Assembly: GCA_002418825.1 (NCBI GenBank)
Contig: DIEW01000015.1
Location: 157-64,156, forward strand
Length of the DNA: 64,000 bases
Source of the DNA: Syntrophaceae bacterium UBA5764
Lineage (GTDB): Bacteria; Desulfobacterota; Syntrophia; Syntrophales; Smithellaceae
Reading direction: 5' to 3'
Shown here: positions 20,582-30,465 of the stretch, in pieces
How the letters are laid out: the number at the start of each line of letters is the position of its first letter
Numbering within the stretch: the first letter of the stretch is position 1
The notes under the pieces: model-generated
Databases searched by the model: none
The model's input: the letters and a program-made list of their open reading frames with translations, nothing else
What the model was told of the DNA's origin: nothing
Made by a program: the position numbers and the translations under genes

Positions 20582-21355
20582 TCAAAATAAAATTTTGGCT
20601 GTTTTGTCCAGTACGTCTTTTAGTTTTCCGGCATCGCCGGATTTAATCAGTGTACGGATATCGGCCAGAGTTTTTTCGTAAAGCTCTATTATTTTGACAG
20701 TATCCTGATTGCGCGTGATGATGTCAGCGTAAAGCTCCGGGCTTTCGGCAAAAACTTTTTTGACAATTTCCATTTTGGCGCGCAAAACAGGAGTGGAATA
20801 ATTAGCAAGTTCCCGAGGATTAATTTTTGATGCGGCGATGGTCATGCCCAGAGAAATGGTGTGCAGATGATTGAGCACCTGCACAACGGCCATCATTTTA
20901 TCGTGGTGCGCGGGACTCGTTTCCAAAACTTTATAGTTATTATTTTGGAAAAGCTCTTTAATCCAGACAATCCACTTTACGCCGCGCGCAGGGCACAGGA
21001 TGATATTTTGTCCGGAAAAATCCGGCATGTTCGGGCCAAAGAGCGGATGGCAACCGATTACTTCCGCGCTTGTGCTCGCCAGCATCCACTCCACCGGATC
21101 TTTTTTGAGCGAGGTCAAATCCATCAGCAGTTTGTTTTCGTGGAGCAGCGGCCCGACTTCTCTGATGACTTTTTCTGTAGCGGCAACCGGCACGGCCACG
21201 GCGACAACATCGCAAAGCCCGGCAATATCTTTTATACTCAGAGGCGTTTTGCGGCCGCAGATGTGCACCTTGCAATTTTCTTTTTGCAGCAAGGCGGCCA
21301 GCCAGCTGCCCATGCTGCGCGTGCCCCCGATAATGCCCACAGAAATATTATCCAT
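20582..21355 (-). CDS. tyrA: prephenate dehydrogenase
   Basis: N-terminal Rossmann IIGGTRSMGSWLA, a PDH-family C-terminal helical domain, and operon context. Confidence 0.8.
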   Translation of the reverse strand: MDNISVGIIGGTRSMGSWLAALLQKENCKVHICGRKTPLSIKDIAGLCDVVAVAVPVAATEKVIREVGPLLHENKLLMDLTSLKKDPVEWMLASTSAEVIGCHPLFGPNMPDFSGQNIILCPARGVKWIVWIKELFQNNNYKVLETSPAHHDKMMAVVQVLNHLHTISLGMTIAASKINPRELANYSTPVLRAKMEIVKKVFAESPELYADIITRNQDTVKIIELYEKTLADIRTLIKSGDAGKLKDVLDKTAKILF

Positions 21356-22427
21356 TGATTACCGCCCTTTGCCGCAAGAGGTGATCAGCCAAAACAATGC
21401 AAACCATTGCTTCGCATACCGGCACGATTCGCGGTATCACACAGACATCGTGTCTGCCGCTGATTTCAATTTTTCTTTCTTTTCCTTTTGTGTCCAATGT
21501 TTTTTGTTCCTGACCGATAGATGGTATGGGCTTACAATAAGCCCGCAAAATAATATTTTGGCCAGTGGTGATTCCCGCGAGAATTCCGCCGGCATGATTT
21601 GTCTGAAATCCTTTTTTATTCATTTGGTCGTTTATCTGTGAGCCCGCTTTTTGGGCAACCGCGCAGCCGTCGCCGATTTCCACAGCCTTGACCGTGCCGA
21701 TGCTCATCAGCGCTTTGGTCAGGTCCGCGTCCATCTTATCGAAAACCGGCTCGCCCAGTCCCGCCGGAACACCGCGCGCAATGATTTCCACCACCCCGCC
21801 CAGTGAGTCTTTATCCTTCCGCACTGCGGCAATCTTTTCTTCCATAGCGGTCGCCGCCTTTTCGTCGGGACAAAAAAGAGCATTGGCGTGCGTTAGGTGC
21901 AGTAATTCCCTGCCCGTCGGAATGTTTTTGCGGTCGATTTCAATGCCGCCGATGGCTACGGTATAAGCCAAAACCTCCATGCCGGCACGCGCGATAACTT
22001 TTTCCGCGACTGCTCCCGCGGCCACGCGCGCCACCGTTTCTCTGCCGGAGGCACGCCCGCCGCCCCGCCAGTCACGCTGACCGTATTTTTTCCAATAAGT
22101 AAAATCGCCCTGTCCGGGGCGGAAAATATCTTTTAAATTAAGATAAGCGGAAGAATCAGCGCCGGCGTTTCTGATCAAAAGAGAAATAGGCGTGCCGGTG
22201 GTTCTTCCTTCGAAAACTCCGGAAAGAATTTCCACCTTGTCTGCCTCTTTTCTTTTGGTGGAAGAAATTGTTTTTGACGGCCGTCTTCTGTCAAGTGCCG
22301 CTTGAATATCTTTTTCTGCCAGAGCAATTCCCGCCGGGCAGCCGTCCACGACTGCACCAAGGGCTGTTCCGTGTGATTCCCCCCATGTGGTAACGCGAAA
22401 AACACTACCTGTCGTATTTCCGGCCAT
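21348..22427 (-). CDS. aroC: chorismate synthase
   Basis: TTWGESHG and GRHDVCV blocks. GGGAG RBS. Confidence 0.92.
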   Translation of the reverse strand: MAGNTTGSVFRVTTWGESHGTALGAVVDGCPAGIALAEKDIQAALDRRRPSKTISSTKRKEADKVEILSGVFEGRTTGTPISLLIRNAGADSSAYLNLKDIFRPGQGDFTYWKKYGQRDWRGGGRASGRETVARVAAGAVAEKVIARAGMEVLAYTVAIGGIEIDRKNIPTGRELLHLTHANALFCPDEKAATAMEEKIAAVRKDKDSLGGVVEIIARGVPAGLGEPVFDKMDADLTKALMSIGTVKAVEIGDGCAVAQKAGSQINDQMNKKGFQTNHAGGILAGITTGQNIILRAYCKPIPSIGQEQKTLDTKGKERKIEISGRHDVCVIPRIVPVCEAMVCIVLADHLLRQRAVING

Positions 22428-22455
22428 AATATCTCCCGAAAAAAAGTTTTGCCGT

Positions 22456-23022
22456 TTAGTTGATATCGGACAATTTTTTGTTTTTCAAAATATTTATGAG
22501 CATCCCTGTTTCCACAAGGTGTTGATAAATTTCTTCTCCTACTTCTACAATGCTTTTCTGTGCTGTTTCTACCGTATAGTCCGCTGCTTGTTTGTACAGA
22601 GTGTCCCTTTCGTTAACCATTTTTATGGTTTCTTCCACGATGTTCCAATCTGTAAATTGCGGACGGACCACCCCATCCGGTCTTTTGTTGTTGAGTCTGC
22701 TGATGATATCATTAAGCGGTGCGTTAAGCCAGACAACAAATCCGTTTTTTTTAAGAGAAGCAACATTGTCCTTATCCAGCACCACTCCGCCGCCCGTGGC
22801 GATGATACAAGCCTTTTGCTTTTCCAGGGCTTGCACGGCATCTTTCTCCCCGGCGCGGAAGAAGCCCCAACCATGAGTCGCAACAATATCAGCAATGGGC
22901 ATTTTTATATTTTCTTCCACCAGCGTATCTGTGTCAAAAAACGGCAGATTCAGTTTGAAGGCAAGATGTTTTCCGACTGTGGATTTTCCGGTTGTGCGAT
23001 AGCCGATTAGAACGATATTCAT
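22456..23022 (-). CDS. aroK: shikimate kinase
   Basis: Walker A GYRTTGKSTVG and the ATGGG block. ATGA overlap with aroA. Confidence 0.9.
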   Translation of the reverse strand: MNIVLIGYRTTGKSTVGKHLAFKLNLPFFDTDTLVEENIKMPIADIVATHGWGFFRAGEKDAVQALEKQKACIIATGGGVVLDKDNVASLKKNGFVVWLNAPLNDIISRLNNKRPDGVVRPQFTDWNIVEETIKMVNERDTLYKQAADYTVETAQKSIVEVGEEIYQHLVETGMLINILKNKKLSDIN

Positions 23023-24272
23023 ATTTTGCCCAGTTCCTCCCAGAATTCGGGGAATGATTTATCCACGCATTTTTTGTCGGTTATTTCAATGCCGGTAACA
23101 GCCAGCGCGGCAACAGCGAAACTCATCGCAATCCGGTGATCGTTGTACGTTTGAATTTTTGCCGGCTTCATTTTGCCTCCGGCAATGATTAGCCCGCCTG
23201 CTGTTTCTTCAGCTTTGATACCCGCACGTTTTAGCTCCGCCGCCATCGCCGTCAGACGGTCGCTTTCTTTTATTCTTAAATGTTCCACATTCGTTATGGT
23301 TGTCTTGCCACGACGGAAAGCGGCCAGCACAGCCAGCGTGGGCACCATGTCCGGCATGTCATTAAGATCGAAAATGAAATCACCCTCGGTAAGGTTGTTT
23401 CCCGTAACTTCCACCCAGTCTTCCCGCGCCTCTATATGGCAGCCGAGTTTTTCCAGAATCTCCAGCAGATGGATATCGCCCTGGCAGCTTTTACGGCTGA
23501 TTCCCATTACACGGATGGGACGCTGCAGGAGTGCGGCGGCCAGGAAAAAGTAGGAAGCGCTGGAAGCGTCTCCTTCCACGCGGTATTCACGACCCTGATA
23601 TGAATTTTGTCCCTTTACGGTGTATTTATTTTTTTCTTTTTCAATTTTGATGCCGAATTCCCGCATCGCCGCTACGGTCAAGTCGATGTAAGGCACCGAA
23701 GACACGCGCCCGCGCAAGGTAAGTTCGATGCCCTGCCGGGTGTAAGGCGCGCAGAGAAGAAGAGCGGAAACATATTGAGAGCTTTCCACGTCCCTGAGGG
23801 ATATTTTACCGCCGGCAAGTCCGTTGGCGTTTATTGTGACCGGCGGGCAATCGCTGGTGCAGGTAATATGCGCCCCCATTTTTTTCAACGCTTCGGCAAG
23901 CGCGCCTACCGGCCGCTCGCGAAGACGTTTTTCTCCGGTTAAAATATATTGGCCTTGACCCAGGCAAACCAGCGCCGTGAGAAAGCGCAGCGCCGTGCCG
24001 TTGTTCCCCAGAAAAATCTGCCGGTCGGTGTTTGCCAGTTTTCCTGCCGTGCCGTTCACATACAGGCCGCCGGAGACGGAAACAATCTGCGCGCCCAGAA
24101 TGCGGAGTCCCTCCATCAAATAATTTGTGTCTTCGGAAATTAGAGGATTGCTGATAAAAGAATTATCACGCGCCAACGCGGCGATCACCAGCGCCCTTTG
24201 CGTCAGACTTTTGGAGCCGGGGACGCGCACTATTTTGGGCGGCGCCGTCAAGGATAAATTATCGTTGTTCAA
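23019..24272 (-). CDS. aroA: 3-phosphoshikimate 1-carboxyvinyltransferase (EPSP synthase)
   Basis: VPGSKSLTQRAL, and LGNNGTALRFL. TTG start is uncertain. Confidence 0.9.
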   Translation of the reverse strand: MNNDNLSLTAPPKIVRVPGSKSLTQRALVIAALARDNSFISNPLISEDTNYLMEGLRILGAQIVSVSGGLYVNGTAGKLANTDRQIFLGNNGTALRFLTALVCLGQGQYILTGEKRLRERPVGALAEALKKMGAHITCTSDCPPVTINANGLAGGKISLRDVESSQYVSALLLCAPYTRQGIELTLRGRVSSVPYIDLTVAAMREFGIKIEKEKNKYTVKGQNSYQGREYRVEGDASSASYFFLAAALLQRPIRVMGISRKSCQGDIHLLEILEKLGCHIEAREDWVEVTGNNLTEGDFIFDLNDMPDMVPTLAVLAAFRRGKTTITNVEHLRIKESDRLTAMAAELKRAGIKAEETAGGLIIAGGKMKPAKIQTYNDHRIAMSFAVAALAVTGIEITDKKCVDKSFPEFWEELGKI

Positions 24273-25824
24273 GAGTGGTAAGCCTTTCTAAAACTATTTT
24301 TTTCATCAATGCCACAGGCGGTTCCTTTTTTGTCCAAAATTTGAGCTGCGCCGCTCCTTGGTGGACAAACATCCCCACGCCAGAAAGCGCCCGGCAACCC
24401 TGGGCTGCAGCATCTTTTAATAACTTGGTTTGCAATGGATTGTATACGGCATCCATAACATATTTGTAACCTTTAAGCACTGTCTTTGGCACGGGTGATT
24501 TCGAAGTTTGCGGATGCATACCCACAGGTGTTGTATTGATTAAGCAGTCAGCCTTGATTTTGGCGATTTGATTAAGTGGATAAAAAGAGCAGCCGAAATG
24601 CTCGGCCATGATTTTTGCCCTTGATACAGTGCGGTTGACCAAAATCGGTAAGCCGCCTTCTTTGATTATTCCGTAAACGGCCGCCCGCGCCGTTCCTCCC
24701 GCGCCGACAATAACGAAAGTCTTATCCTTAATCTTCATTTCTTCTTTGAGCGTCATGATAAGCCCCAGCCAGTCTGTATTCGTGCCGGTTAATTTTCCTT
24801 CGCTGTTGATGATGGTATTTACCGCGCCGATTTTCAATGTGTCTTCGTCAATATCGTCGAGATACCGCATTACTTCAACCTTAAAAGGAATGGTGACGCT
24901 GGCGCCGCGGACGTTCAGCGCTTTCATGCCGCGTAAGGCATCATCCAAATCCAAAACGCAACAGGCGCTGTATGCTTCCGGCACGCCTATTTCTCTTAAA
25001 GCCGTATTATGCATCAAAGGGGACAAACTGTGCCTTACCGGGTTACCGAGCAAAATAAAATTGTGCGGCGTTTCCTTCTGTAATCTTTCTGCCGGTTGCG
25101 CCTTTTTCTCGCCCAGTGTTTTTTTAATTGAAATCATTTCACGGACGGTTAGCTGTCCCGGCGCTGACTGCTCCTGTGTTTCCAGCGCGACAAAATTCAA
25201 AAAGTTTCCCATAGCCGGCGCGGCAATTCTGCTCAGACGCCCGGCATCACCCATACACAAAGCGATGATATCCTGGCCGCGTTGACGTGCGTAAGGTATC
25301 AGGCTCAACACCTTAAGGTTGTCTTCATCTTGTTCGGCGAATGTTACAATTTTAACCACAGCCGGTTTTTCTTTCATGCAGCGATGAAATATCTCTTTTA
25401 ATTTAGTTGGCGGAGGGGTCTTTTTAACGTCATGATAAGAGATGATGATTTTTGTTTTACTGCCCTGCCGAATGCACAAATTTTTTAATTTGGTAATGTT
25501 TTTCCCCCCTTCCGCCAGTTCTATGTCAATGAAATCAGCGCCCAGAATTATGGCTTCCCGCAGTAGGCCGAATTTTTGCGCCCTTGTTTTTGTATTTTTT
25601 GCTTTTACATTTTTTTTCGCACTAAGAGCCTCATCTTTTCTCCGGCAGGTGACGATGATTTTGATGCCCGGAGAAATCCGGCGGGCGGCGCTGATTAATT
25701 GAGGCAAATTGCCGTCGGTTATCAAGTCCATTCTCAGCTCGATACAATCGGCCGCCAGACACCCCTTGCGCACGGCAAGCAGGGCTTCTTTATTTGTCGC
25801 GGATGTGATAGAAACGCAAATCAT
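24259..25824 (-). CDS. aroDE: bifunctional type I 3-dehydroquinate dehydratase / shikimate 5-dehydrogenase fusion
   Basis: 521 aa. The N-terminal half is AroD-like; the C-terminal half is AroE with GAGGTARA NADP(H) motif. Confidence 0.85.
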   Translation of the reverse strand: MICVSITSATNKEALLAVRKGCLAADCIELRMDLITDGNLPQLISAARRISPGIKIIVTCRRKDEALSAKKNVKAKNTKTRAQKFGLLREAIILGADFIDIELAEGGKNITKLKNLCIRQGSKTKIIISYHDVKKTPPPTKLKEIFHRCMKEKPAVVKIVTFAEQDEDNLKVLSLIPYARQRGQDIIALCMGDAGRLSRIAAPAMGNFLNFVALETQEQSAPGQLTVREMISIKKTLGEKKAQPAERLQKETPHNFILLGNPVRHSLSPLMHNTALREIGVPEAYSACCVLDLDDALRGMKALNVRGASVTIPFKVEVMRYLDDIDEDTLKIGAVNTIINSEGKLTGTNTDWLGLIMTLKEEMKIKDKTFVIVGAGGTARAAVYGIIKEGGLPILVNRTVSRAKIMAEHFGCSFYPLNQIAKIKADCLINTTPVGMHPQTSKSPVPKTVLKGYKYVMDAVYNPLQTKLLKDAAAQGCRALSGVGMFVHQGAAQLKFWTKKEPPVALMKKIVLERLTTLEQR

Positions 25825-26903
25825 AATCTGCCTTCTGCTTTCGGGTATGAACCTAAAATTTTTAACAATGTCGTTTTATCTTTCAACTCTTTCAGGCATG
25901 CACCGGTATGTTTATCCTCGCCATGCCCGATCATGTCCACAAAAAACAAGTATTCCCAGAGTCGTTGTTTGACCGGGTGGGATTCAATTTTGGCCAGGTT
26001 GATGTTGCGACTGGCAAACGAGGCAAGAGCGCGATGCAGCGCGCCGGGGGAGTCCGGCGTGGCGAAAAGCAGAGAAGTTTTATCGTTGCCGGTGACCTCA
26101 TTTTTTCTTCTGCCAATTACCAAAAAACGCGTCATGTTGGAAGAATTATCTTCTATGCCTTCCGCCAGAATGTTCAATCCGTAAATATTTGCGGCCAGCG
26201 CGCCGCCGATGGCGGCTTCGTCTTTTTTCCCGCGTACCATCTGCGCTGCCGCCGCCGTGCTCTGAGCATCACCCAGCTCACAATTCGGCAAATTTGTTTT
26301 AAGCCATACCTGGCATTGCGCCAGCGCGTGCGGGTGGGAATATACTTTCTTTATATCCGAAATATTTTCCGCCGAAGAAATCAAGCAGTGGCTTATGCGC
26401 AGATAAATTTCCGCGCATATCTGTAGGGAGGTGATGATTAACCTGTCCAGTGTAATATTCACCGAGCCCTCCAAAGAATTTTCTACCGGGACGACGCCCC
26501 AGTCGATGGCGCCTTTCTCCACTTCGTCAAAGACGCGCGCAATGCCGGTCTGCGGAAAAAAGCGACTGGATTCTCCGAAATGCGTTCGCGCGGCCTGATG
26601 AGAAAAAGATGCTTCGGGCCCTAAAAAAGCGACGGTTGTCATTTTCTGCAGGCTGCGTGAGGCGGAAATAATTTCGCGGAATATGGCGGTAACGGATTTG
26701 CCGTGCAGAGGGCCCTCGTTAAGTTCCTGCAGATAGCCGTGCACTCTGGCTTCCTGTGCCGGATCGTACACATCGATTCCGTCTTCGCCTTTGACCTTGC
26801 CGATTTCCACCGATATTTGGGCGCGTTCGTTCAACAGCCGGATGATTTCCCGGTCTTTTTCTTTCATCTTTGCTCTCAAAGCTTTAAGTCGCTCGCGCGT
26901 CAT
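25821..26903 (-). CDS. pheA: chorismate mutase / prephenate dehydratase (P-protein) with ACT domain
   Basis: N-terminal CM helix (LRAKMKEKDREIIRLLNERA), a PDT domain with the TRF motif (NMTRFLVIG), and a C-terminal ACT domain. Confidence 0.9.
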   Translation of the reverse strand: MTRERLKALRAKMKEKDREIIRLLNERAQISVEIGKVKGEDGIDVYDPAQEARVHGYLQELNEGPLHGKSVTAIFREIISASRSLQKMTTVAFLGPEASFSHQAARTHFGESSRFFPQTGIARVFDEVEKGAIDWGVVPVENSLEGSVNITLDRLIITSLQICAEIYLRISHCLISSAENISDIKKVYSHPHALAQCQVWLKTNLPNCELGDAQSTAAAAQMVRGKKDEAAIGGALAANIYGLNILAEGIEDNSSNMTRFLVIGRRKNEVTGNDKTSLLFATPDSPGALHRALASFASRNINLAKIESHPVKQRLWEYLFFVDMIGHGEDKHTGACLKELKDKTTLLKILGSYPKAEGRL

Positions 26904-27993
26904 TTTTCATCTCCTCGATAACTTCGTTGATCAGCCTTTTTTCAACTCCTCCGTTTACAAAAGGCATGCCTATTTTCTTCAGTAACACGAAATGAATTGT
27001 GTCCCCATTTTTTTTCTTATCCATCTGCAGACGCGTGATTATTTCTTGCGTGGGCAGTTTTGCCGGTATCTTTACCGGAAGCCCTGCCTTTTCCACAAGT
27101 TCTTTAATGCGTTTTGCCTCAGCGATATCAAGATACCCTTTTTTCGCGGAAATGAGCGCCGCCGCAATCATGCCCACCGCCACGCCTTCGCCGTGCGTCA
27201 TTTTATACATGGAAACGGCTTCCAGCGCGTGTCCCAGGGTATGGCCGTAGTTGAGAATACGCCGCAGTCCTTGTTCGCGTTCGTCTATTTCCACAATAGC
27301 TTTTTTGATCCGGCAGCAATTTTCTACAATCTTAACGAGCAAGGTGGAATCTTTTTGCCGTACTGCTTCCATGTTTTCTTCCAGAAGATAGAACATTTTT
27401 TCGTCATCAATAATGCCGTATTTGATTATTTCCGCCAGGCCGTTTTCGAATTCTTTGGCGGGGAGCGTTTCCAGAAAAGACAAATCCACAAATACCGCCG
27501 CCGGCTGATAAAATGTTCCCAGCAGATTTTTTCCGGTAGGCAAGTCAACGGCCGTTTTCCCGCCGATGGCGCTGTCAACTTGCGCCACGAGCGTTGTCGG
27601 AATCTGCACGTAAGGCACGCCGCGCATGTAAATGGAAGCGATAAATCCGACCATATCGCCCACCACGCCGCCGCCCAATGCTATCAGGCAGGTGCCTCTG
27701 TCGGCGCCGAGCTTCAGGAGTTTATCCGCAAGATCAAGGAGAGTATTGATGCTTTTGGAGGCCTCGCCCGCGGGAAAAGCGATAATGTCGGCGTTCAGAC
27801 CGATATTTTTTAATACGGTCAGGAAGTTTTTGCCGTGAAGAGGCGCCACGTTATCGTCCGTGACGATTACATGTCGCCCCGCCTTGTGATTTTTGGCGAT
27901 AAGCAGGGCGATTCTGTCGGCGATGCCGCGACCGATGTGGATTTCGTAGGATGATGAATATTTCTTATCCAGGTTAACTTTTATTGACCGCAT
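26884..27993 (-). CDS. aroB: 3-dehydroquinate synthase
   Basis: GGGVVGDMVGF and HTLGHALE. ATG at 27993 with GGAG 7 nt upstream is preferred over the TTG at 28014. Confidence 0.9.
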   Translation of the reverse strand: MRSIKVNLDKKYSSSYEIHIGRGIADRIALLIAKNHKAGRHVIVTDDNVAPLHGKNFLTVLKNIGLNADIIAFPAGEASKSINTLLDLADKLLKLGADRGTCLIALGGGVVGDMVGFIASIYMRGVPYVQIPTTLVAQVDSAIGGKTAVDLPTGKNLLGTFYQPAAVFVDLSFLETLPAKEFENGLAEIIKYGIIDDEKMFYLLEENMEAVRQKDSTLLVKIVENCCRIKKAIVEIDEREQGLRRILNYGHTLGHALEAVSMYKMTHGEGVAVGMIAAALISAKKGYLDIAEAKRIKELVEKAGLPVKIPAKLPTQEIITRLQMDKKKNGDTIHFVLLKKIGMPFVNGGVEKRLINEVIEEMKNDARAT

Positions 27994-28010
27994 ATCACTG
28001 CTCCGTTTTT

Positions 28011-29021
28011 TCAATGTTTGATTGCCGAAGAAAGCGTTTTTATCTCTTCCATTAACTGATAGAATTTTTCCGGCTTGAGCGATTGCGCTCCGTCAGAAAC
28101 GGCTTTTTCCGGCGTCGGATGCATTTCTACCAGAATACCATCGGCGCCCACGGCGACCGCGGCGCGGGAAAGCGGAATCACATATTGCCACTGACCCGCG
28201 GCGTGGCTCGGATCCACAATTACCGGCAGATGAGTAAGACTTTTCAAAACGGGAACCGCACTGATGTCCAGCGTGTTTCTTGTGGCCGTTTCAAACGTTC
28301 TGATGCCGCGTTCGCAAAGCATTACGTTTGGATTACCCGAAGAAAGAATGTATTCCGCCGACATCAAGAGCTCTTCTATTGTGGTCATCATGCCTCTTTT
28401 TAAAAGCACCGGCCTACGCGACCGACCGACCTTCTTGAGCAAAGGGAAGTTCTGAACATTGCGCGCGCCGATTTGCAATATATCCACATACGATTCCACC
28501 AGGTCCACATCCGCTGGATTAATAACCTCCGTGATCGTGGGCAGCCCCACGCGTGTTCGTACCTGTTCCAGAAGTTTCAGGCCTTCTTCCTCCATGCCTT
28601 GGAAGCTGTAAGGCGACGTTCGCGGCTTGTAGGCACCGCCGCGCAGAATCTGCGCGCCGCCTTTTTTGACGATATAGGCTGATTCCATCAGTTGCTCCTC
28701 GCTTTCCACCGCGCACGGTCCCGCCATCACCACAAAATCCGGGCCCCCGATTTCTATCGTACCAACGGAAATGACGGTATTGCCCTCGTGCGATTCCCGG
28801 CTGGCCAGTTTGTATGGTTTCAAAATGGGGATAGTTTTTTCCACGCCTTCAAGGAATTCAGCCTGTCTGATTCCTTCTTTCCCGCGCTCGTCGCCAATTA
28901 CTCCGATGATCGTGCGTTCGACCCCGTGCGATGGGTGAGCTTTGAAACCAAGAGATTCAATCCATCGGATTACCTCGGTTAACTGTTTTTCTGTTGCCTG
29001 CTTTTTCATGACAATTATCAT
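28011..29021 (-). CDS. aroF: 3-deoxy-7-phosphoheptulonate (DAHP) synthase, type I-beta with N-terminal ferredoxin-like regulatory domain
   Basis: KdsA-like core (GPCAVES, DPSHAAG) preceded by an ~65-aa extra domain as in Thermotoga-type enzymes. GGGAG RBS. Confidence 0.9.
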   Translation of the reverse strand: MIIVMKKQATEKQLTEVIRWIESLGFKAHPSHGVERTIIGVIGDERGKEGIRQAEFLEGVEKTIPILKPYKLASRESHEGNTVISVGTIEIGGPDFVVMAGPCAVESEEQLMESAYIVKKGGAQILRGGAYKPRTSPYSFQGMEEEGLKLLEQVRTRVGLPTITEVINPADVDLVESYVDILQIGARNVQNFPLLKKVGRSRRPVLLKRGMMTTIEELLMSAEYILSSGNPNVMLCERGIRTFETATRNTLDISAVPVLKSLTHLPVIVDPSHAAGQWQYVIPLSRAAVAVGADGILVEMHPTPEKAVSDGAQSLKPEKFYQLMEEIKTLSSAIKH

Positions 29022-29034
29022 AATTTCTCCCTTT

Positions 29035-29077
29035 CGAAATAAAAAAGGCCATGACGTTTTATGCCGCCATGGCCTTT
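29035..29077 (-). terminator. intrinsic terminator / attenuator stem-loop in the aro operon leader
   Basis: On the - strand: AAAGGCCAUGGCG (29077-29065), an 8-nt loop, CGUCAUGGCCUUU (29056-29044), then UUUAUUU. The one non-Watson-Crick pair is G-U on this strand but A-C on the other. Ends about 15 nt before the aroF RBS. Confidence 0.65.
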
Positions 29078-29145
29078 AAAGAAACAGAAAAGCCATGAGC
29101 GTTTTTTTGATCCACCCATGGCTCGTTTGGTTATGCTACCTTAAA

Positions 29146-29217
29146 CTAGTCCTCCGTGCGCGATGGGCAGACCAATGCGAAATAGGTATAAAACCAGTAA
29201 CCATAAAAAATTTTCAT
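29146..29217 (-). CDS. aromatic-rich leader peptide MKIFYGYWFYTYFALVCPSRTED (23 aa), not in the ORF track
   Basis: Hand translation of the - strand from ATG (29217-29215) to TAG (29148-29146). 8 of the first 13 codons are Phe/Tyr/Trp. Lies between the candidate promoter and the terminator upstream of aroF. Weak SD. Confidence 0.6.
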   Translation of the reverse strand: MKIFYGYWFYTYFALVCPSRTED

Positions 29218-29267
29218 CGCGTTGAGTTTTCTGTCCATCGAGTTAAAAATACCCTTTGTTTGACGTC

Positions 29268-29296
29268 CATATAAACAAACGCAAAATGTTTGTCAA
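29268..29296 (-). promoter_or_regulatory. candidate sigma70 promoter of the aromatic supraoperon
   Basis: On the - strand: TTGACA (29296-29291), 17-nt spacer, TATATG (29273-29268), with an A/T-rich tract upstream. Confidence 0.4.
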
Positions 29297-29454
29297 GGGA
29301 AATTTTTTAAGAATATAGAGCTATTATTTGCCGCTTGGCTTTCTTTTTTACCGGTATTATTTATTTTTTTCGGCAGTGGATAATTTTGTCGGCTACAGTT
29401 GGTGAAGCTTCTTTGTTTCCATTGAGGAGATAAAGTTTTTATTTTGTCTAACCG

Positions 29455-30465
29455 TTATGGTTTTATCATGACTTTTATTGCCGACAGTTCATTAATCTGT
29501 GCTTGGAAAGCCTGCGCTGCCTCGTCCAGAGAAAAAACATGGCTAATCATTTCCTTGGTTCTGACCTTGCCGCTCTTGAGCAGTTCGATCGCCGCGGGAA
29601 AGTTGCCACCCAGGCAGCCGATAAGTGTGAGGTTTTTGCTCAGCACCGATATGGGATCCCAGGTAAGCGGCTCTTCGTAGACGCCGACGAGCATTATTTT
29701 CCCCCCGCCGCGCGCGAGGGTTATTGATTGGTCAAAAGTTTTCTGCTTACCCGCGCATTCGATTACAGTGTTCACACCGAGGTTGCCTGTGGCCTCCATA
29801 ATTATTTTGGCTGCGTCTTCTTTTGCCGCGTCTATTACCAAATCCGCGCCGCATGTTTTGGCGGCGGCGAGGCGCGAGGTCCTTCTGCCGCTTACGAGAA
29901 TCTTGTTCACACCCGTTGCTTTAAGTACCTGGATGCAATAAAGACCAATTACACCCAATCCTAAAACAGCGAAGATTTCGTTTTTCCTTGGCTGGGCGCG
30001 GTTGACGGAAAAATAGGAGACGGAAAGAGGTTCTACCGAAGCCCCGTCTTCATAGGAAAGTTCTTCCGGCAGGGGAAAAACATTGCGTCCCAACGCGGCA
30101 AAAGGCACATGCACATATTCCGCCATCGCGCCGGGAAGCTGATAACCCAGAAGCGCCATGTCCGAACAACGATGCGATTTACCCTCTCGGCACCAGTAAC
30201 ATTTACCGCAGGGGGAAAATCCAACCGCTGTAACGCGCATACCGGTTTTAATGCCCTGTATCCCGGAGCCGACTTCAACAATATCACCGCTGAATTCATG
30301 CCCGAAGATCGTGCCTTTGCCTTCATCTTTTTTGTAAACATGTAAATCCGAGCCACAGACGCCGCAGAGTTTCACCTTGATGATTACACCGTGCGTTTCA
30401 CAAACCGGCTTAGGCACGTTTTGCACTCTTATGTCTTTTTTCCCGCACAGCACGGCCGCTTTCAT
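29455..30465 (-). CDS. zinc-dependent alcohol/polyol dehydrogenase (MDR family)
   Basis: CGVCGSDLH, GHEFSGDIVEVG, a structural Zn Cys cluster (CGKCYWCREG), and the GLGVIGL Rossmann motif. Confidence 0.85.
   Translation of the reverse strand: MKAAVLCGKKDIRVQNVPKPVCETHGVIIKVKLCGVCGSDLHVYKKDEGKGTIFGHEFSGDIVEVGSGIQGIKTGMRVTAVGFSPCGKCYWCREGKSHRCSDMALLGYQLPGAMAEYVHVPFAALGRNVFPLPEELSYEDGASVEPLSVSYFSVNRAQPRKNEIFAVLGLGVIGLYCIQVLKATGVNKILVSGRRTSRLAAAKTCGADLVIDAAKEDAAKIIMEATGNLGVNTVIECAGKQKTFDQSITLARGGGKIMLVGVYEEPLTWDPISVLSKNLTLIGCLGGNFPAAIELLKSGKVRTKEMISHVFSLDEAAQAFQAQINELSAIKVMIKP

Follow-up and report, generated by a model that had tools for sequence, protein, structure and literature searches.

A conserved, unannotated leader rich in aromatic codons precedes the aro operon of Syntrophales and is a probable ribosome-mediated transcription attenuator

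The leaders trpL, pheL and hisL are textbook leader-peptide attenuators. In the enterobacterial trpL and pheL leaders, a short open reading frame (ORF) carrying codons for the end product is followed by a terminator and an antiterminator which exclude one another; the position of the ribosome decides between them, and as the terminator is thermodynamically favoured the decision is a kinetic one. The his attenuator of Salmonella and E. coli consists of six segments pairing either as A:B, C:D and E:F or as B:C and D:E. In Firmicutes, aro, trp, phe and tyr genes are controlled by T-box leaders, whose antitermination also responds to tRNA charging, but which recognize uncharged tRNA by direct binding, independently of translation. 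Two papers describe a leader with mixed aromatic codons in Corynebacterium glutamicum, where the Phe-Tyr-Phe leader peptide aroR attenuates aroF, the gene of 3-deoxy-D-arabino-heptulosonate 7-phosphate (DAHP) synthase (PMC4046766, Mentz 2013; PMC11802643, citing Neshat 2014), and state that ribosome stalling raises transcription of the aroF operon in response to Phe limitation and not to Tyr availability (PMC11802643; PMC4046766). The subject of the present work is the leader in front of the aro operon of Syntrophaceae bacterium UBA5764, analysed within a stretch of 64,000 nucleotides (nt) of contig DIEW01000015.1 (the window) and in related Syntrophales.

On computational evidence, which is the kind used throughout, this leader is very likely a ribosome-mediated (leader-peptide) transcription attenuator of the aro operon. 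Its parts were found in the following order on the minus strand: a conserved promoter, a small ORF with aromatic codons, and two covarying hairpins with U tracts, termed terminators 1 and 2 (T1 and T2), with which the alternative pairings S1:S2 and S3:S4 are incompatible (segments are numbered S0 to S5 along the RNA). The sequence features by which attenuators are recognized are present, namely a leader ORF behind a promoter, enrichment in codons for the end products, predicted terminators (T1 and T2) between the ORF and the first structural gene, and an antiterminator which shares bases with T1, lies in the ORF and would depend on the ribosome. The core claim of an initial annotation of this DNA, that an unannotated leader peptide with aromatic codons and a set of alternative hairpins form an attenuator, is supported by the conservation of the ORF, by covariation, by the conserved alternatives, by the promoter and by the match between leader codons and regulated gene.

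The operon aroF-aroB-pheA-aroDE-aroA-aroK-aroC-tyrA (20582..29021, minus strand) was identified by NCBIfam matches. Its first gene, a 336-aa ORF with its ATG at 29021 (minus strand), lies directly 3' of the leader region and was assigned as aroF (DAHP synthase type I-beta), while pheA was assigned as chorismate mutase/prephenate dehydratase and tyrA as prephenate dehydrogenase; aroD and aroE are fused. The ORFs abut or overlap, and the eight genes provide the entire common pathway together with the Phe and Tyr branches; no trp genes were found in the operon. The promoter-like sequence reported in the initial annotation is present, with a -35 hexamer TTGACA at 29296-29291 and, after a 17-nt spacer, a -10-like hexamer TATATG at 29273-29268 (minus strand). 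In 72 of 76 orthologous leaders a perfect TTGACA occupies the corresponding position, and it is followed after 16–18 nt by an A/T-rich hexamer whose end is typically ~29–31 nt (range 23–69) upstream of the aligned start codon. From this arrangement transcription probably starts near 29261, ~22 nt before the leader ORF.

Related loci were collected by a scan with AroF, one genome per species, which returned 80 loci with 72–88% identity, all from Syntrophales (labelled Smithella, Smithellaceae, Syntrophaceae or Syntrophus). Three are cut upstream, leaving 77 usable loci, and the same small ORF and hairpins are present at 75 of these. The initial annotation had suggested aligning orthologous loci and folding the leader RNA; the alignment confirmed conservation of the ORF, the aromatic run and the covarying terminator stems. 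The two loci having no leader (L031 and L032; aroF identity 80%, Smithella/Syntrophaceae) carry a different ORF that abuts aroF, ending 29 nt before it, and may represent a rearranged operon or an additional copy of aroF. In most of the 75 loci the small ORF ends ~110–140 nt before aroF, and in six (L045-47, L058, L073, L075) it is further away because of an insertion. Inserts of 80–300 nt, partly GC-rich and repeat-like, were seen between T2 and the aroF ribosome-binding site in L045-L047, L058, L073, L075, L083, L086, L136, L140 and L142. The leader travels with aroF rather than with the upstream gene, since aroB is found 3' of aroF in 77/80 loci and the ADH-like upstream neighbour in only 4/80.

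The alignment of genome loci comprised 76 leaders and the enlarged set used for covariation 177 unique sequences. Metagenomes were scanned with an S1...S2...S3 pattern, which matched at least 120 contigs and was resolved in 117. The layout is also present on ~100 metagenome contigs and is conserved in ~190 related sequences. Among the genome loci, L052, from a metagenome-assembled genome labelled Syntrophus aciditrophicus, has the leader as well. Two contigs of the metagenome-assembled genome MFD04716.bin.2.259 (L002 and L003) each carry a leader-aroF locus with 86–87% identity to the window, reflecting either a duplication or strain mixing in the bin. A regex search of the window and all 200 loci found no further copies of the switch away from its known site.

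The leader ORF (29146..29238, minus strand) has 30 codons and a stop codon, TAG at 29148-29146, and encodes MDRKLNAMKIFYGYWFYTYFALVCPSRTED. The initial annotation had described a 23-codon ORF (29217->29146, MKIFYGYWFYTYFALVCPSRTED) whose first 13 codons include eight for aromatic residues (3 Phe, 4 Tyr, 1 Trp). The ORF itself, the frame and the aromatic count are correct, but the ATG at 29217 is internal and in frame, and the conserved start lies 7 codons upstream at 29238. The ORF begins at the same aligned start in 76/76 leaders, with ATG in 73/76, and has a length of 27–33 aa. A Shine-Dalgarno-like 4-mer was found upstream of it in 64/76 leaders. None of six leader peptides was present in an exact look-up in a collection of 15 billion proteins, and the ORF has never been called as a gene.

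Codons 11–20 of the ORF (29179..29208, minus strand) form the sensor run F Y G Y W F Y T Y F. With eight aromatic residues in ten, its density is the highest among all small ORFs of both strands of the 64-kb window. A density of 7 is also reached by chance inside genes of the window, so that the single sequence is not decisive; relatives were therefore compared, and it is conservation that decides. In the 76 leaders there are 5–12 aromatic residues per leader (mean 8.1), with Tyr in 76/76, Phe in 75/76 and Trp in 69/76. Synonymous codons in the run vary (TAT 235, TAC 65, TTT 178, TTC 43), and Phe, Tyr and Trp interchange within it from leader to leader, which indicates that the constraint acts on the class of amino acid.

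T1 (29078..29124, minus strand) consists of the hairpin 29124-29113 : 29101-29090 (S2':S3) and the U-rich tail UUCUGUUUCUUU, and T2 (29037..29077, minus strand) of the hairpin 29077-29065 : 29056-29044 (S4:S5) and UUUAUUU; both hairpins are built on CCAUGG cores. Folding of 29265->29022 with RNAfold gave -73.7 kcal/mol (z = -4.24, with 0/200 shuffles as stable), and the minimum-energy structure holds S2':S3 and S4:S5, in agreement with the initial annotation. Folded as the plus strand, the region is 10 kcal/mol less stable, and U tails are absent. A consensus terminator scan identified 29077-29044 as a terminator. In the 76-leader alignment 90.4% of T1 and T2 cells are paired, compared with 23–54% in slid controls. 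Changes on both sides were observed in 15/25 pairs (6/12 in T1 and 9/13 in T2), a result which 0/500 shuffles matched and which was upheld in the 177 unique sequences. RNAalifold, to which alternative folds are inaccessible, returned only T1 and T2 from the full alignment.

A tail of at least 6 U in 9 nt follows T1 in 74/76 loci, and a U tail follows T2 in 67/75. The S4:S5 hairpin is missing or tail-less in 7/76 loci, L072 having T1 only and six others a second hairpin without a U tail, which leaves T1 as the sole universal terminator of these leaders. The initial annotation had assigned the two hairpins different roles. The S2':S3 pairing, taken there as just an anti-antiterminator, is real, but with its U tract it is a predicted terminator, present in every locus; S4:S5, taken there as the terminator, is indeed one by scan and covariation but is not universal. 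As the only conserved promoter lies upstream of T1 and T2, which leave 22 nt ahead of the ribosome-binding site and no room for a promoter after T2, expression of aroF requires that both terminators be bypassed.

This requirement bears on the idea that the ORF encodes a functional hydrophobic micropeptide, or is an upstream ORF tuning aroF translation, and that the hairpins are ordinary terminators or insulators. The ORF is conserved and its product hydrophobic, and terminator-like hairpins are common in intergenic DNA (the scan found 5 in 2.5 kb against 4.0 expected), both as this explanation would have it. However, ordinary terminators in this position would make expression impossible, the peptide is widely variable except in its aromatic content, the stop codon lies ~125 nt before the aroF start, which makes translational coupling impossible, and the covarying hairpins accompany the ORF in ~190 sequences. 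Such a role for the ORF is hardly credible.

The predicted antiterminator is formed by S1 (UUGGUCUGCCCAU, 29163..29175, minus strand), its 5' arm, which lies in the ORF codons LVCPS, and by S2 (AUGGGUGGAUCAA, 29107..29119, minus strand), its 3' arm, which overlaps the 5' arm and loop of T1. The initial annotation had found 9 bp between them (29171-29163 : 29119-29111); the pairing is real and extends to 13 bp (29175-29163 : 29119-29107). In the alignment 90.7% of its cells are paired against 29–46% in slid controls. Covariation is weak and lies at the outer pairs, with 35 double-change cells where 22.6 are expected in the 177 sequences (1/300 shuffles reach this value). The stretch AUGGGUG is common to S1:S2 and T1, making the two mutually exclusive, and the overlap also accounts for the conservation of the T1 loop GAUCGA. 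S1 itself is nearly invariant, including at third codon positions (C 70/76, C 73/76, G 76/76). A 1-nt insertion after the aromatic run in three genome loci (L023, L026, L029) and three metagenome loci (L138, L170, L176) changes the tail of the peptide from VCPSLRR to CIGLPV... and leaves the S1 nucleotides unchanged. Together with the third positions, this natural experiment argues that S1 is constrained as RNA.

The same observations can be set against a leader peptide that senses free aromatic amino acids through nascent-peptide arrest, in the manner of TnaC, and not through codon starvation. The C-terminal VCPS of the leader is conserved, and the peptide of a sister class with a run of Trp codons (described below) carries W12-15 and P24, the stop following one codon further on, an arrangement that resembles the W12/P24 spacing of TnaC. 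However, VCPS is kept down to third codon positions and its nucleotides persist in the frameshift variants L023, L026, L029 and L138, pointing to a constraint on RNA; runs of 7–10 codons for the end products of the operon itself are the signature of starvation sensing; and induction by excess product would have the wrong sign for a biosynthetic operon. Peptide arrest is accordingly regarded as extremely unlikely, and starvation sensing by the translating ribosome is the reading retained here.

A second antiterminator is predicted between S3 (UCAUGGCUUUU, 29098-29088) and S4 (AAAGGCCAUGG, 29077-29067), spanning 29067..29098 on the minus strand. The initial annotation had proposed this alternative for S3, with S4 at 29077-29065, and it is borne out by conservation, 90.5–94.7% of cells being paired compared with ~30–46% in slid controls. 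S3:S4 is the only conserved way of holding S4, while T2 needs to be bypassed for aroF expression. The start-codon region, S0 (CGAUGGACAGA, 29230..29240, minus strand), is complementary to S1, with 84.4% of cells paired against 27–42% in slid controls, and the third base of codon 2 is C in ~65/76 leaders although the residue varies between D, N and G. This pairing of S1 with the start-codon region probably completes the logic of the switch. The predicted layout is a six-segment chain with two registers, S0:S1 / S2:S3 / S4:S5 (off) and S1:S2 / S3:S4 (on).

Mean duplex energies are -12.6 kcal/mol for S0:S1, -18.3 for S1:S2, -20.2 for T1, -14.6 for S3:S4 and -20.6 for T2. In partition-function folds of the RNA ending before S2, S1 is predicted to pair chiefly with S0 at most of the 76 genome loci (median probability 0.64), and an independent set of 78 metagenome loci gave medians of 0.67–0.72. 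When S2 is present S1 moves to S2 (median 0.84), and when S3 is present S2 moves to S3 (0.86) and S1 returns to S0 (0.53).

Two other pairings were considered and not adopted. A Shine-Dalgarno-like motif, GGAGGAC (29149..29155, minus strand; alignment A1, columns 157-164), lies between S1 and the stop codon; it is conserved in the aro class, often as AGGAGGAC, which gives Arg-Arg codons, and is absent from the Trp-run class. A hairpin of S1 with GGAGGAC acting as an anti-antiterminator has 81.6% of cells paired against 39–63% in slid controls, a mean energy of -5.9 kcal/mol and no counterpart in the Trp-run class. Pairing of the aromatic run with the spacer that follows the stop codon occurs in the minimum-energy fold of the window and, by eye, in an L054-type subgroup, but the main predicted partner of S1 before S2 is S0 (0.64), the downstream region having a median of 0.00.

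The Trp-run class was found among the 117 resolved metagenome contigs. Eighty six of these have an aromatic-rich leader with AroF downstream, three more have frameshift-type leaders and AroF, and 16 have a leader with WWW or WWWW (e.g., MAGLAHKTLLGWWWWANISAGVCPS) and, downstream of it, the gene of an outer-membrane protein that matches PF13557 'Phenol_MetA_deg' (Pfam E = 4e-77). No cross combination of leader class and downstream gene occurs among the 105/105 informative metagenome loci (89 vs 16). In the Trp-run class S1 and T1 are identical to those of the aro class and a T2 is also present, the stop codon usually lying 2 nt after S1 (examples are L110:5433-5516 and L099:1961-2051). Loci of this class are L085, L094, L099, L100, L110, L112, L124, L133, L145, L149, L156, L160, L163, L185, L187, L188, L193 and L197. 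The channel gene (PF13557, COG4313-like) is apparently monocistronic, and its product has a weak match to PDB 4RL8.

One switch with different sensor codons in front of different genes is as predicted by ribosome sensing and is the best argument in its favour; a factor binding the shared RNA would not explain it. Control of the terminators by a factor acting in trans on S1/S2 (a TRAP- or PyrR-like protein, uncharged tRNA in T-box fashion or a riboswitch ligand), with the ORF being incidental, would account for S1, S2 and the T1 loop being conserved in sequence beyond the needs of pairing, and for the scarcity of covariation in the alternative pairings. Such a factor would leave unexplained why leader codons switch together with the regulated gene on an otherwise common framework and why the frame, length and aromatic identity of the ORF are kept while synonymous sites vary. 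Moreover, no Rfam family, T-box included, matched the 64-kb window or four related loci at gathering score, and at E <= 10 the region 28900-29500 gave no leader, T-box or riboswitch family but just chance-level matches (aspC motif, rliA and others) far below gathering score. A T-box motif is absent, the conserved blocks being S1, S2 and the CCAUGG cores. Control in trans is considered highly unlikely on these grounds.

The pairing of leader class with gene suggests that the PF13557 channel is induced by Trp starvation. It is also possible, though put forward tentatively and at somewhat less than even chance, that Syntrophales possess a modular chassis (S0:S1, an antiterminator, and tandem terminators opened by relay) which is re-armed with different sensor codons, Phe/Tyr/Trp for the aro operon and WWW/WWWW for the COG4313/PF13557 channel. 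If so, it would follow that obligate syntrophs induce the uptake of Trp or a precursor on starvation, and the phylum would have its first described leader-peptide regulon, unusual in that a single sensor drives two serial terminators.

The working of the aro leader is proposed below with less confidence than the assignment of its class. Transcription would start ~22 nt before the 30-codon ORF, in which nearly all of codons 11–20 specify Phe, Tyr or Trp. With elongation of the RNA, a newly made segment could take over the preceding one: S1 would pair with S0 at first and then with S2, S2 would then prefer S3 (T1), S3 would have S4 as its alternative, and S4 would prefer S5 (T2). At low levels of charged Phe-, Tyr- or Trp-tRNA, the ribosome would stall in the aromatic run, between S0 and S1 and upstream of S1, leaving S1 exposed and hindering S0:S1. 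The S1:S2 helix could then form and last while the polymerase passes the first U tract, and S3, set free, would hold S4 while the polymerase passes the second, so that the operon would be transcribed. When the tRNAs are charged, the ribosome would run over S1 and halt between S1 and S2; S1:S2 would not form, T1 and T2 would fold, and premature transcript ends would be expected near 29080 or 29038. In the case of no translation, S0:S1 and both terminators would be the stable end state, which is also off.

The spacing of the parts bears on these proposed positions. Between the end of the last aromatic codon and the S1 core there are ~5 nt, and the stop codon lies a median of 15 nt past S1 and ~21 nt before T1, so that a terminating ribosome would sit between S1 and S2 with S1 uncovered. 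The statement of the initial annotation that full translation covers S1 would consequently apply during transit of the ribosome but not once it has reached the stop codon.

Several observations weigh against the attenuator as proposed. As a ribosome at the stop codon leaves S1 uncovered, the off state would have to arise through masking in transit, steric blocking or S0:S1 pairing, and a ribosome stalled at codons 11–20 does not itself mask S0. In an equilibrium model T1 wins under every ribosome mask tried once S3 is present; a purely thermodynamic switch was rejected on this result, and read-through would need kinetic trapping, the decision being kinetic as in classical attenuators. No covariation was detected in S3:S4, whose complementarity could in part be a by-product of the palindromic CCAUGG core common to both hairpins, and none that is significant was detected in S0:S1. 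Initiation signals in the window are also poor, the SD-like GGG being weak and far (13 nt) from the ATG at 29238 and the ATG at 29217 having no SD sequence at all. Finally, most leaders have just one Trp codon.

When compared with the classical systems, the Syntrophales leader shares with trpL and pheL the short ORF of end-product codons and the exclusive terminator and antiterminator. However, the enterobacterial leaders have one sensor amino acid, one terminator and their codons inside segment 1, which is thereby masked by the stalled ribosome, whereas in Syntrophales the loop that separates S0 from S1 holds the sensor run, and no Rfam leader family matches. The his attenuator is similar in being a six-segment chain with two registers, in which disruption of the first helix is relayed to the terminator, but only its last helix is a terminator and its His codons are in segment A; in Syntrophales a U tail follows S2:S3 as well as S4:S5, and the chain opens with the initiation region. 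Of the Firmicutes T-box leaders, neither the specifier loop nor the T-box motif is present. The likeness to aroR-aroF of C. glutamicum, a mixed aromatic leader peptide before a DAHP synthase gene, is one of functional analogy, relatedness in sequence being unlikely; that system belongs to Actinomycetota and has three sensor codons and no Trp, while the Syntrophales leader has 7–10 aromatic codons, Trp among them, and two terminators in tandem before an operon of eight genes.

The literature search found no described attenuator for aro genes of Syntrophus, Smithella or delta-proteobacteria. The initial annotation had held a mixed aromatic-leader regulon to be undescribed, which is too strong in view of the reports on aroR-aroF (PMC11802643; PMC4046766). 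Both the mechanism and a mixed Phe/Tyr leader before a DAHP synthase gene are already known, and what is new is an unannotated conserved leader in Syntrophales, whose distinctive features are its three sensor amino acids, tandem terminators opened by relay and the start-codon pairing.

The remaining features concern the borders of the leader. The aroF ribosome-binding site is AAAGGGAG (29034-29027, minus strand), with the start codon ATG at 29021-29019. AroF residues 1–71 (28809-29021, minus strand) form an N-terminal extension of ~70 residues before the catalytic TIGR01361 domain; this may be an allosteric regulatory domain, in which case the pathway would be controlled by feedback inhibition as well as attenuation. 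On the other side, a terminator-like hairpin with a T tract lies in plus-strand orientation at 29411-29435 (+), just past the point where the ADH-like gene (29455-30465) ends on the minus strand; no plus-strand gene evidently leads up to it.

Since the mechanism is a textbook one, the value of the finding lies in annotation and physiology rather than in concept. The central aromatic pathway of syntrophs of the Smithella and Syntrophus type gains a regulatory gene and an RNA element that had escaped annotation, and the compact family, absent from Rfam and with ~190 examples, is fit for a curated model. These syntrophs, which are difficult both to cultivate and to study by genetics, have key roles in methanogenic digesters and in the degradation of hydrocarbons. 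It is predicted that they sense the supply of aromatic amino acids via tRNA charging, and the Trp-run class directs attention to its channel as a candidate for uptake linked to Trp starvation.

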